DNA from: Perkinsus olseni
Taxonomy: Eukaryota
DNA: 56,666 nucleotides
Assembly: GCA_013115125.1 (NCBI GenBank)
Contig: JABANN010000179.1
Span: 1 to 56,666 of the forward strand
Reading direction: 5' to 3'
Below, one piece after another: positions 1-56,300 of this stretch (position 1 is its first letter; every line of letters begins with the position of its first letter). The notes below the pieces were generated by a model. The model was not told where the DNA came from. It searched no databases and was given only the letters and a program-made list of their open reading frames with translations. The position numbers and the translations under genes were made by a program.

Positions 1-3000
1 CGAACGAACGAACGCACAAAAAAGCGCAGAAGTGACAGTATATGCTCCGCTCGCTTCGCTCGCTCCGCAATTTAAATTAAAGAAACTAACATTCTCCAGG
101 CCTGCACAACACTCCACAAGATACTCAGTATGGTATCTTACGGTTTCATATAACTTAACCGGATAGAAGTATCAATAAAACAGACCCATCCTCCCGCTAA
201 CCTGCTGCCGTTGACGCTCAGCATCAACCTTCGATATCCGAGACTTCACATTCTTAATGGCACTTTGAAGGCCCGAGATCTCTCCAAGTTTAGTAGTCTC
301 GTTTTCTCGCTCTGCCGCGAGAACAGGTGGGTAATCCAAAGGTCCCCGGTTCGATCCCCGGCTGGGACATGTCTTACCTCTATAAAGTTCCTGTTGCGTC
401 TTGAACAGGTCCTCCTTCGCCAACTTCAGCTGCTGCTCCAGTTCCCCTGCCCTCTCCACAGCCTTCCTCATCATCTCCTCAGCTTCCCTCGCAACCTCCT
501 CCTGAGACAATTTCGTGGCGCGTGACTCCACTTTAACGCTTGTTGAAGGAATTTTCCGCTTCCGAAAAAATCCGGCCCGAAAGATCATTAAAATTCAACC
601 GTCGAATGCATATGTACTCATCCCTCTAATTTAAAGTTGATAAACAATCAAAGAAAACAGAAGAAAAAATAACAGCACTTGTTTCATACCACTCCATCTC
701 CAACTCTCGCGAAATTCAACCGAGGAGCTCCGACACACTCTTAACCGTGTAAATAATCCTCCTGCCCGTCCCTTCCCTCACTTTGTTCATCTTAGATTGC
801 TCAACCTCAGATTTCTTCTTCTCCTCCATGGCAAGCCTCTTCCTCAGGTTTGCCACCTTCAACGGATCAAGTCAACCAAACGTTCGATCCCGTCACCAAT
901 CACATGCGCTAATGTTTTCAACTCTGCTGCCTCAATTTCTGATATTTCACCAAAAAAAACAAAATATCTTCAAAAATCGAGAAATCCGACAGCACAAGCG
1001 GCAACAGACTTTGCTTAACAGTTTACTTTTCTCTTCTGTTCTTCAACCCGCTGGTCCCACTGCTCGATTTCCACTCGTTTCTGATTTTCCTCCGCCTTCG
1101 CCGCGCTAAGCTCCGCACGCACAACTTCAACCTGTCCGAGAAGACAAGGTCGTCGAAGACGCTTCGACCGGAGGAATCTTTTGGCTGCGGTAATTCTACC
1201 TCGTCCTTAAGCAGCTCGACCTCCTCCCTGACCTTAAGATTCTCTAATCGCAGCATACCGAGCTCTCGGTCAGTCAAAGAGACCAAAGATTCTTTCTGGA
1301 CAAAACCGTGAAGTACTGGAACAGTAAAAACCGTCAGTTCTTCATCACCTCTCTAATAGATTTTTCGTAATTATCATCGATTTTACGTAATTCAGAAATC
1401 TTCAATTCTTTTTCCTTGTGGCGCTTGCTCTCTTGAGCGTGCCTGAACGGTAAGCAAAATCTTCACTGGGCCACGAAATTCGACCTTCAACCAAGGGTGA
1501 AGGTCGAATTTCGTGGAGTGGAGATACTAAGCAGGCCAGACCGCACTGCAAAGAAAATCTAAAGTTCACCATCCGCATGATACGCTTGGATAGATTCTCC
1601 CAACGTACTGCTCGCCAAGGGCAATCAGTTCCTGATCTTTCCTCTTGTTTGCATCCACTCCCGCCTCCCAAGCCGCCAGGTCACTAAAAATAACAACAAA
1701 ATAGAGGACCTAGGGATCGAACCCGGGACCTGTTACGCAGCCCTGGCCTCGGTCGCCTGCTCGAGCTGTTGACTTATTTTGTTCATCTCTATTTGCATCG
1801 CCTCCGTCTCCGTTGCCTGATAGAACAAGGCATTATCGAAAGCAGAAGGTCAGTCCATGAGGATTATCTCATCAGATACTCCCGACCTCTTCTGAATATG
1901 GCCAGGATGAAAGATATCTCACAAAGATATACAACAGAGCCTCTATCCCTCATAACCACGTGAACCCCTAATCATCCGTCATCTACGTCGACGCCCTTGC
2001 ACGCCTTCTTCCAAATTTTTCTCTTCTCATAGTCACATCTCAGCATAAATTGCTCCTCGACAAGCCATCAATAATGCGATTTCTCCCACGAAACCTCCAC
2101 CCGCAACTCCCCGAGTTCACATCACTCACTATTTCGGAAAAAAAACTCGTCTGTAAAATTCCTATCATTGTCCCCAACAGTCTACCCAAAAAAATATTCC
2201 TCCTCGAAATCACAACGACAGTGAAAGATTCACCCAAAACTCACCCGATCGCTCAATTCCTGCTTGGTGTCATGGATCCTCTTTAGGACCTCTTCGAGCT
2301 CCTTCCGCAAATTCTTCACCTGAGTCCATACGCAAATTCGCACGAACATAACAAGTATCATTCGCGAGTCTATTTTCAAGTTCATCAGTTTTGTTAAAAA
2401 TTAGTTTCCATCTTCACCGCTTCACTACGGCTGATCTAATACGCCGGTAGTTTCACGATCATCCTCATCATCGCATCGGCGCAAAAAATCGCCAAAAATT
2501 CAACTCCAGCTCACTGGGTTTCCATCACGCGACCAGCAACTGTGATAAACATAACCAGCCCTTCAACATCCAAAAATTCTTAAATATCTTTTCGTTTTTC
2601 GGAAACGCACCATCAGACCCTCATATCACACTTCATATCGAAGCCCAACACTCGAAAAAGGAATCTTATTTTTCGTGACCGCCCACCTTGACGTCATCCG
2701 CTCGTCTATACTCCTCGAGCTGCATCTCATCCTCCTCCTTCTGTCTCGCGGCAATGACCCACTGCTCGAGTTCTTCCTGACCCCACTCTAGCTCAGTGCG
2801 GAGCTCGTCCACCTTCGTATTTGCGCTGAAGCGAGATATTTCGCGCGCCACAAAATTCACGAAGTAGCTGCTTACTTTTCGATTGCATTCCTGGCATCAT
2901 TAACCATCCTCTTGCGATCTTGCGAAATCTTGCGATTCTTCAATATCTCGGACTCCAACCGGCCGATTTGCCGCTGGTCTAACGCCATGAGCTGACACAC

Positions 3001-53809: not shown

Positions 53810-56300
53810 ACTCACCGGAAAGATTTTGATATGCGGATGGCTCCAAGTTGGCGTGCCCGCCAATAGGGTTAATGCCACTCCAGTCGACCCTAGCAGATGC
53901 CAGATGAACTGAAGATACGCAGAAGAACTGTCACGCGCCACAAAATTCAAGGCAGTACCCTCAAGATGGAATCAAAATGCAGAAGTGCAATATTTCCCCG
54001 CGAGCTTACAGTACTAGGCCTTCGTGACGATGTGGCAGAGCTCGCATGGCGGAGCCGTCAACTCTAGATAGTGAAATATTCACTTCACGCGAGAGTCCCC
54101 GGTTCGAATCCCAGGCTCGGCATTTTCTGTCAAAATTCTATTTTTACAGTCAACTACAGAGAGAAGTGTTGCCGAACAGTTTTGCGAATTTTATGCTAAG
54201 CCAATCCGTTTGGGGTCAAAAACGCCTTGGCTGAAGAGAAATATTCGTACGCATGGACGGTCGGAATGGTGCGACTTTCACATCCGCTGTCTCGCCACCT
54301 GCAACGATTGACGGAGGGAAAGGGTTGCGGTGGTTAACTAATAAAGCCGTACTAAACGTCGAGAGCGACAGCATCAGCAGGCAGCCGACGGCAAGGCGAA
54401 ACGAAAGTCGTGGAGGGAAAAATTGCCTTCGACAACTTGCTCGCTTGAACAAGCATGGATAATTCAGTTTGGTATTAGTGACATACTGAGACTCTCAGTC
54501 TCAGAGCGATCTTTCTCATCATAGTTTTGATGATAGTTTTGTGGGAGAGCGATAAGTCCGGCTTCCTCTGGGCAATCTCCGATCGAGATTAAATCATCGT
54601 TTTCGCATTCAGGCCACAAAAGTGAAACGATCTCCTTCGAAATGACAAGTAGCTCACACAGGCCCCCGCGAGCGGGGAGAAAATTTGCAATATTTTCGGT
54701 ATTAGTAATGACTCGCTGACAGCCGGTTCCTCGGGCACGATGTAAAAACTGATTGTAATCAAAGGAACAATATTCAAAAATCAGAAAACCACTAAACGTA
54801 AAAACTTAGGTAAGATTTCTGCAAAAAAAATACAGTTTTCCACGTAAAATTCTTAGTCTTCCTCAAAAAAGATCGGAAAATTCCGGAACTTCAACCTAAA
54901 TTTGACCTTTTTCTGAAAAATAATATTTTCCGAGCAACATCAACATCCGACTTCACCGTACTCACACCCTGCCCTGCGGTCGCCCTCCCCTCACTACATG
55001 TCTCGTAACCCATTGACGCTTAGTCGTACTGGCCCTCGAAAAATGCAGAAGTGCAAAGACGGGAACCATCAGCAGGCACATCGTCATCACCTAAACGCGG
55101 ATGAAGGTGGATGTGCAATTTTACAATTTTTGTATCAGATTTGATGCCAAGCGTTGCCTCTCCATTCCGTACAGACGAGAATCGACATTGGCGAAATCTT
55201 ATTCGTACTTTACTCGTATTTTGCCACGAAAATGGCATCTAACTGAATACCATCTTTTCCAATATTCATGGAAGTCTCCAGCGGTGTTCGTGCGGTTGAC
55301 ATTGTCGCACGTTCTTCACTGCCGCTCGCGATGCAAAAACACTGCATGACTCAAACGTAATTTTTGAATCAGAATTTGTAAAACTCCGGGAGAGAAGTCA
55401 CTCGACTGGCCGCCATAGAGAGTTGTGATCTCTGAAATAAGTCAACCATTCTCAGAAAACCCGGCCTCTGGCAAAGACGATGAATCGATTCCGAAATTGA
55501 GAATCGACTTGAACGTGTTAGACAGTATCCCAGACAAGATGGGATAGTTTCGAATCAGTCCAAATTAATTTATGCATTTCTCAACTGCTCTCATGCGATC
55601 TACCATCTCGGAAATTCCGAACAGCTGCGGAATCTTCATCGTGTTTATTCAGCCAACTCCTTCTCAGTCCACTTACCGAGTAGCCCAGTCCGACGATACA
55701 GTCGTACCAGGTGACAGCGACGAAGACAACGCACATGTAGCGATCTATCCGCTGGGCTGGGTGGGTATCATCTTCTATGAACACATAGTCAGCAGCGAAA
55801 CTGAATCAAGCATATTCCGTATCATCCCAGCTTCAACCTAAGATACGCTCTCACCTTGCAAGGGACTCTGTGAGACACACGAGCGCTCCGAAGAAGCAGT
55901 GTTGTAAGATGAACGCCGGGCCCGTAATAATCGCCAGTAGGAAACAAGAAACGACGACCGTCGACCGATGCCAAATTTGCGATTTCCGATGCGAATTTTT
56001 GAGATTTTTTACCGGCCTTGGGAGAGACATATTCGAAATGATGTTGTAGAAAGTGGCGGAGGTCCTTCCCTGCAGTGTCGACTAGTTGCAAGGGTCGGGG
56101 ACTGCGGGAGGGGCGCTGGGGTGAATCTTGACGACACATGAAGATGGACAAAAGACAAACTGGAATGGAATGAATTGCGGAATTTATGGTATGCAATTAG
56201 CGATGATTCTATCGTAAAATGATTACGAATTGTAGAAGAGCTGCCATTACAACATCGAAAAAATGACAAGTGTCGTGGGTAGGTCGATTAGGAGATGACG
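53810..56300 (-). CDS. Multi-pass membrane protein, CREST-superfamily-like (ceramidase/PAQR-type HxxWH); multi-exon, ends uncertain
   Basis: Hydrophobic exons FAADYVF..HPAQRIDRYMCVVFVAVTW, MCLLMVPVFALLHFSRAS..WVTRH spliced to FIWHLLGSTGVALTLL (H-FIWH). Confidence 0.5.
54011..54126 (+). mobile_element. Short tRNA-related (SINE-like) repeat; second related copy at 38067-38140
   Basis: Shared GTACTAGGCCTTCGTRACGA (19/20 identical), then GCRGAGCTCG, a GGTTCGAA T-arm hairpin and a T-run in both copies. Confidence 0.55.

Follow-up and report, generated by a model that had tools for sequence, protein, structure and literature searches.

A 16-base word recurs, letter for letter, in a 56,666-nucleotide stretch of the Perkinsus olseni genome (contig JABANN010000179.1 of assembly GCA_013115125.1; "the window" below means this whole stretch). 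The word, a 13-base core (AATTTYGTGGCGC) followed by GYG, is real, genome-wide and constrained, as is evident from its copy number, its enrichment in introns, its occurrence on both strands, the absence of insertion marks, coding copies that are colinear with their orthologs, and a conservation exceeding that of the flanks. With moderate confidence, we interpret it as an orientation-blind, double-stranded DNA site for a putative, abundant, sequence-specific Perkinsus protein, formed and kept in place.

Perkinsids are the sister group of the dinoflagellates, which lost normal nucleosomal chromatin. To our knowledge, hardly anything has been established about how chromatin in perkinsids is controlled by sequence-specific means. 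No description of the word was found in the searched literature (topic searches without the word's letters, with partial coverage and supplements outside it). In the accessible part of one paper, PMC13685798, Perkinsus appears as an outgroup only.

Results

Copies of the word in the window and in the genome

The original prediction, made from the letters of the window, had described ten exact matches; every coordinate and strand was confirmed, and none of 100 dinucleotide shuffles contained any match. With up to three mismatches allowed, the window holds 14 matches against 1.78 expected. Among the proposed variants, those at 49967–49982 (given as 49968; one mismatch) and 45231 (two mismatches), both on the minus strand, stood, while those at 1471–1516 and about 45047 turned out to be half-sites only. 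As had been claimed, nine of the ten copies are in the sense orientation relative to their host or neighbouring gene; the exception is the copy at 509, which is antisense to a CCDC39-like gene. Introns of about 45–55 nt, said to hold many of the copies a few bases from a splice site, hold about half of the ten; the rest lie elsewhere, and the copy at 12616 is not intronic.

The genome that holds the window (39.9 Mb in 3353 contigs) contains 811 exact copies, 397 on the forward and 414 on the reverse strand, with a density of one per 49 kb genome-wide compared with one per 5.7 kb in the window. Named homologs assign this genome to Perkinsus, with P. olseni as the nearest species. Reversed-pattern controls yielded 0, 0 and 1 copies genome-wide. 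The core itself occurs 1141 times, running straight into GYG in 811 copies and adding an A first in 245. The consensus is AATTTYGTGGCGC, an optional A, and GYG followed by AC, AA, AG or GT, that is, a rigid left part of 13 bases, a spacer of one base that may be absent, and two main right types; the right ends form linked types, chiefly GTGAC and GCGGT. The word exceeds 16 nt, with partial information extending to about +7 and A shunned at −1 (1/100). In the sample, 100 exact copies were accompanied by 32 one-mismatch variants, with eight of the 16 positions invariant (one CpG among them), and a uniform spectrum of variants over the positions was rejected (p about 1e-4). At least 119 metagenome stretches and 40 viral stretches contained one match each, with a second word in 2 of the 119, and no other motif-rich organism was found in these collections; such single matches look like chance.

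The claim of a genome-wide, mostly intronic element with unrelated flanks was thereby borne out: besides the 811 copies and the intronic placement given below, none of 130 sampled copies shares the word together with both flanks elsewhere (BLAST, 0.83-Mb sample).

Conservation and probable formation in place

Across three tandem duplications, 3 of 57 word positions differ, compared with 64 of 218 flank positions (Fisher p=5e-5). In a pair found by flank similarity alone, the word differs at 1 of 19 positions and the flanks at 43 of 144 (p=0.026).

Two copies lie in coding sequence. The first (G000:C91:31754, in a Sen1-like helicase) reads NFVARD, and the P. chesapeaki ortholog reads NFMARE with no gap; the motif spacing of the helicase is 21 residues in both the Perkinsus copy and P. 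chesapeaki, compared with 20 in 85 of the 103 family members measured. The second (G000:C69:33501, antisense, in an unnamed protein) reads CHAPRNS, and its P. chesapeaki ortholog reads CHAPQNS, the R/Q change being the word's degenerate Y. Judged at the peptide level, both outgroup sequences would be encodable by word variants seen here. At a further site (G000:C3 near 43600), the exon upstream of a word-bearing intron reads VVARD, resembling the NFVARD frame. Related glycosyltransferases presumably have a conserved PC at this spot, and VVARD may be a decayed coding copy.

Comparison of two GST paralogs showed that all three word-bearing intron positions of one gene are common to a 54–58% identical paralog without the full word. 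In this paralog (G000:C320:22957-23849), the last intron keeps eight bases of the word's reverse strand; the other gene carries the complete word there, and the eight bases may be the remains of an old, decayed site.

These observations bear on a different origin, in which fragments of the tRNA D-arm/A-box or tiny mobile-element ends were pasted in as templated, introner-like insertions that built or filled introns. The form with the added A contains an A-box-like run, and two tRNA-Trp-like genes share TYGTGGCGCA with the word, Y included, a run of 9–10 nt found in an incomplete set (30 of 63 scored tRNA loci; 64 distinct ARAGORN calls). In addition, tRNA T-arm words co-cluster with the word, the right halves fall into linked types, and tRNA genes are highly amplified in P. 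marinus according to the accessible part of PMC3706591. A 595-bp element with terminal inverted repeats also carries a word variant and occurs in at least three copies. However, the 134 core copies analysed showed no excess of target-site duplications (84/22/4/0 for k=3–6, compared with 69/18/5/1 after shuffling) and no excess of flank repeats; the one weak excess, of 8-nt flank inversions, was 3 against 0.8. Shared flanks were confined to local tandem duplicates. Nor did the copies resemble tRNA relics, with an A box followed by a B box at tRNA spacing and with D and acceptor stems: a B-box-like run 25–55 nt downstream was present in only 22 copies at varied spacing, D-stem closure was found in 13 of 130 copies compared with 14 and 10 in controls, and an acceptor-stem partner in 6 compared with 9. 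The old GST intron positions, the two coding copies without added length, and an orientation of 77:23 rather than 50:50 also speak against insertion, which we consider unlikely.

The 595-bp element (L344:5621-6215 on contig G000:C2436, L345:4868-5462, and L294; 98–99% identity) carries a tRNA-like piece along with the word variant, and one copy shows, by eye, a 3-base flanking duplication. Tandem arrays of tRNA-Thr genes, several of them decayed, were seen at two loci (L274 and L270). A long terminal repeat primer-binding site was rejected as an identity for the word: the right half is too variable, and by eye no tRNA 3' end matched among the 64 ARAGORN calls of the incomplete set.

Introns, strand and splicing

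Gene structures came from a home-made model whose calls are rough: it reproduced 4 of 10 RNA-supported introns exactly and broke up the intronless Lon gene. With introns modelled neutrally, a call was possible for 61 of the 127 sampled copies, 56 being intronic and 5 exonic, compared with 32 intronic among the 96 callable control positions (of 247; p=6e-14). Among the five called exonic, two were confirmed by orthologs and one looks like a 48-nt in-frame intron. The callable copies comprise 47 sense and 14 antisense (sense 95% confidence interval 0.65–0.87; p=3e-5 against 0.5), and by a coarser method 38 copies were sense, 8 were antisense and 33 of 79 were unclear. In one GST gene, all three copies are antisense. 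The sense strand of intron interiors is G-rich and A-poor (G 0.307, A 0.186), and by a heuristic composition-equilibrium argument this composition predicts 73–82% sense for the word. The observed 77% fits the prediction (p=0.56 against 0.73), so the sense bias does not point to an RNA signal. Across 27 short introns that hold it in sense, the word lies 2–32 nt from the 5' site and −1 to 46 nt from the 3' site, a closeness that introns of 45–55 nt force. In the sampled copies, then, the intron enrichment stands, with no fixed splice distance and a sense bias at the level of composition.

The original prediction had offered splicing or chromatin as the role of the word and had likened its 5' half to a U1-type Sm-binding site. 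An RNA-level element, whether an Sm-like site, a branch site or a sequence pairing with small nuclear RNA, would accord with the intronic enrichment over control positions and the sense bias; TGAC resembles a branch site, and two copies with the added A are predicted to provide the 3' AG. Unlike an Sm-binding site, which has an unbroken U-run between RA and GR, in single-stranded RNA and in sense only, the word has a C in the U-run in 86 of 100 core copies (the first 100 listed), and 14 of 61 callable copies are antisense; the U1 candidates carry ATTTCTGG. The longest run identical or complementary to the word in the U1 and U2 candidates is 5–7 nt. The branch-A position is a G in 27 of 100 copies of the G class, the distance is fixed to neither splice site, and copies occur in exons and upstream of a gene. 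The antisense copies, the broad offsets and the short U1/U2 matches thus leave the splicing reading unsupported, and the antisense and exonic copies largely refute it; we regard it as very unlikely. The splicing half of the earlier suggestion falls with it, and the half that named a chromatin or DNA element fits best.

Of the small nuclear RNA loci, two (among L051, L052 and L252) are divergent U1 candidates that score under the Rfam cut-off, and the third is a clear U2 gene. For the leader RNA of Perkinsus, the candidate Sm site was reported as AUUCUGG or AUCUGG (PMC3101222, seen in part), and Perkinsozoa leaders were described as having no classical Sm site (in the part of PMC9399869 at hand); neither finding matches the word.

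Host genes

Pfam annotation of 130 open reading frames near copies revealed mixed hosts, including GST, GARS, SF3A2, LUC7, adaptin, a DEAD helicase, an ammonium transporter and others. As a classical regulon site, the word would instead be bound by an E2F- or SBF-like factor at cell-cycle or zoospore genes. Its reverse strand shares 6–7 of 8 positions with the E2F consensus GCGSSAAA and 7 of 8 with the SBF site TCACGAAA (both taken from the accessible portion of PMC4862756); Cryptosporidium uses E2F, and the E2F motif is frequent upstream of its genes (PMC4117751, in part). The E2F-type likeness proposed for the 3' half is partial, and the genome yielded no match to PF02319 (E2F_TDP) or PF04383 (KilA-N), negatives that are weak because the genes are split into short exons, the E2F search also having no positive control. 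Furthermore, the word is about twice the length of E2F or SBF sites, and its copies occupy internal introns of mixed housekeeping genes instead of cell-cycle promoters. Mixed hosts and internal introns make a regulon unlikely, and we hold this explanation to be highly improbable.

Companion words and distribution

K-mer counts over 248 kb revealed further fixed words: GCGGAGCGAAG, ATCTTAGGTYGA, a B-box/T-arm word, CTTCGCTGTGCG, GGCGTATCTT, GGARTGGTAT and TAGCATAAAAT. The word belongs to a set of about eight co-clustering words, one of them a B-box. The copies are clustered: among the matches listed, 9 fall in contig C3 (74 kb), 10 in C320 (65 kb), 5 in C1 (273 kb) and none in C2 (159 kb). Co-clustering with the seven other words gave a Spearman coefficient of 0.34 over 194 bins of 2.5 kb (p=1e-6), and a coefficient of 0.29 (98 bins) within the motif-rich contigs alone.

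The word-poor C1 has a higher GC content and a lower CpG observed/expected ratio (mostly 0.76–1.0) than the word-rich window, C3, C320 and C365 (mostly 0.87–1.17), hinting at two genome compartments. A further word, TGCATGCGTG, at 30791, 31948 and 31966 of the window, resembles the TGCAT ApiAP2 motif (PMC4117751, in part) and is less confined to the word-rich domains.

In motif-rich contigs, the local absolute skew is 0.158 within 500 bp of the word and about 0.08 beyond 1.5 kb, with similar behaviour at two companion words. An origin-like skew switch was rejected, since GC skew keeps its positive sign across the word and shows no flip. Spacing between pairs of the word peaks at 151–176 bp (9 of 60 pairs), and for all words 34 of 524 pairs lie at 150–175 bp. 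Predicted intron pairs also peak at 150–225 bp, and the word spacing shows no clear harmonics; nucleosome phasing is not claimed, as intron spacing alone gives the 151–176-bp peak.

Features of the window

The coordinates of the copies, variants, companion words and best-defined genes are collected in Table 1.

Table 1. Copies of the word, related matches and selected genes in the window
Feature	Position	Strand	Context
Exact word	509..524	+	Antisense, in 280-nt intron 502-781 of CCDC39-like gene, 7 nt from intron 3' end
Hairpin with 22-nt arms, two left half-sites only	1471..1516		In CCDC39 intron
Exact word	2842..2857	-	Sense, in 50-nt intron 2826-2875 of CCDC39
Exact word	3018..3033	-	Sense, starts 3 nt into 45-nt in-frame intron 2992-3036 of CCDC39
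Exact word	12042..12057	+	Sense; predicted intron from 12024 (>110 nt) of unnamed + strand gene
Exact word	12373..12388	+	Sense; predicted intron from 12365 (52 or 70 nt)
Exact word	12616..12631	+	Upstream of Lon gene, not in a cis intron; ~85 nt before AG 12717-12718
Exact word	27836..27851	+	Sense; predicted 175-nt intron 27713-27887, chitin synthase gene
Two-mismatch variant	38751..38766	+	
Right half-site only	45047..45058	-	
Two-mismatch variant	45231..45246	-	
One-mismatch variant, C13 to A (commonest single variant in sample)	49967..49982	-	
Exact word	51368..51383	-	Sense; predicted 51-nt intron 51346-51396, TFIIS-N-domain gene
Exact word	52108..52123	-	Sense; intron near 5' part of TFIIS-N-domain gene, by rough gene model only
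Exact word	53932..53947	-	Sense; predicted 50-nt intron 53909-53958
CCDC39-like host gene, runs past window start	202..4187	-	Pfam PF24161, E 9e-11 on exon 2687-2824; homologs; RNA joints 2316/2684 and 3491/4064
Intronless Lon protease gene	12719..14935	+	Pfam Lon_C, AAA; unbroken RNA contigs 12717/12739-14937
Companion B-box/T-arm word, example	348..358	+	11 window matches
Companion GCGGAGCGAAG, example	51274..51284	+	7 in window; here antisense, at 3' end of predicted intron 51270-51318
Companion GYATCTTAGGTYGAW, example	55832..55846	-	540 genome copies

In the CCDC39-like gene, all three introns that hold the word are confirmed by protein homology, and the 45-nt intron corresponds to a 15-residue gap in six of seven aligned CCDC39 homologs. 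A search for an allelic CCDC39 copy, which would allow filled and empty introns to be compared, returned the window itself as its sole match. RNA contigs from four runs have GT-AG joints, and none of the 15 joints shown (of 36) spans a motif-bearing intron. Two Lon RNA contigs start at AG 12717-12718 after a pyrimidine run, and this AG is the probable trans-splice acceptor of the Lon gene. The Lon gene is intronless amid intron-rich neighbours. Rfam gave no family in the window or in five loci, and a tRNA search of the window with default settings gave none. A near-perfect palindrome with 32-nt arms and a 1-nt centre lies at 6830-6894, and a pile-up of RNA contigs with many differing letters at 10668-10813 suggests a multi-copy repeat within an ion-channel gene region.

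Discussion

The preferred interpretation is that of a double-stranded DNA site bound by a Perkinsus protein. Such sites would arise in place through point changes, be read regardless of strand and be retained by selection. Sites kept by selection would collect where they are cheapest, namely in introns, spacers and permissive codons. Together with the B-box and the other words, they may organise chromatin over domains of intron-rich housekeeping genes, much as sites of general regulatory factors or extra-TFIIIC (ETC) sites do, rather than switch a gene set on or off. This chromatin-organising role is suggested by the co-clustering with the B-box and by analogy to ETC sites, and we give it about even odds within the DNA-site interpretation.

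Several points weigh against this interpretation. No binder was found, and the genome searches for E2F_TDP and KilA-N gave no match. Intron spacing matches the spacing peak, so the peak is no separate argument for nucleosome phasing. At the second coding copy, another P. olseni protein has CHAPQDS, a reading that breaks the word, so that copy is not kept in all isolates, and the ortholog comparison at the coding copies was made on peptides rather than codons. Two of the three tandem arrays were picked because they hold several exact copies, which inflates the conservation contrast. The linked right-half types could stem from a few templates. The gene model is rough, with 66 of the 127 sampled copies not callable. 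In contig C1, which is poor in the motif, co-clustering did not reach significance (rho 0.08, 96 bins), and the samples were drawn from motif-rich contigs, so the rates are not genome-wide.

Compared with known systems, the word works like a dispersed factor-binding site or an uptake-type word, and lacks the properties of an introner, an intact tRNA relic, an Sm site or a B-box. General regulatory factor and insulator sites, such as those of Reb1, Abf1 and CTCF, are long, information-rich and orientation-tolerant and occupy about a thousand places; the Perkinsus word is similar in length, orientation tolerance and number, whereas its sites lie inside gene bodies. We know of no Reb1, Abf1 or CTCF from alveolates.

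ETC sites of budding yeast, as described in the accessible part of PMC3395662, are short, dispersed protein-binding elements that act apart from promoters as chromatin organisers. The B-box word that co-clusters with the Perkinsus word echoes them. However, the word itself is not a B-box: 811 of the 1141 copies are without the A-box-like A, and all have the fixed AATTTYG left part. ETC sites are bound by TFIIIC without Pol III.

The introners of Amoebophrya, a related alveolate, are likewise a repeated sequence in many unrelated introns, and they carry 8–20-nt inverted repeats at intron ends and 3–5-nt direct repeats at the boundaries (PMC7789003, in part). In contrast, the Perkinsus word floats inside canonical GT-AG introns and also occurs in exons. 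Whole-intron similarity is absent, as none of 130 flanks is shared with a distant copy and information ends at −1 and about +7; the 134 core copies show no surplus of boundary duplications; and in the one gene that could be compared, all three word-bearing GST introns occupy old, shared positions.

The uptake sequences of Haemophilus and Neisseria resemble the word in having hundreds to thousands of near-exact copies on both strands and in entering coding sequence without length change (PMC2817400, seen in part). As with them, the word seems to have accumulated in place on both strands, codons included, judging by the two colinear coding copies and the 397/414 strand split. Uptake sequences are bacterial and tied to natural competence, with 35–65% in open reading frames (same source), whereas the Perkinsus word is eukaryotic, mostly intronic (56/61), one of several, and linked to no known uptake process. 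This likeness raises molecular drive, in which a binding protein of the word would skew repair or gene conversion in favour of alleles that carry it, so that exact words would spread with no gain for the host gene. Drive would suit the very sharp consensus (100 exact against 32 one-mismatch copies), the placement in introns, spacers and permissive codons with length unchanged, and hosts of no functional class; uptake sequences, too, are found at coding positions of low conservation and have little to do with what a gene does (PMC2817400). However, selection on binding explains these patterns equally well, and each of the several words would need its own drive; we judge drive to be quite unlikely. 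In its boldest form, a eukaryotic counterpart of uptake-sequence drive, a small lexicon of fixed words, each with its own protein, would have spread via biased repair or conversion, a proposal to which we assign a decidedly low probability. That such a lexicon might have remodelled the introns of entire gene-rich domains, and there even the choice of codons and amino acids, is, to the same degree, doubtful. If real, drive would add a new force to the evolution of introns and codons in eukaryotes.

For the word described here, the repeated intron words of Perkinsus can be reread, with formation in place and constraint favoured over the birth of introns by insertion. Long, exact words within gene bodies would serve as direct baits for binding proteins and would offer a way to ask how chromatin was organised before its loss in the dinoflagellates.

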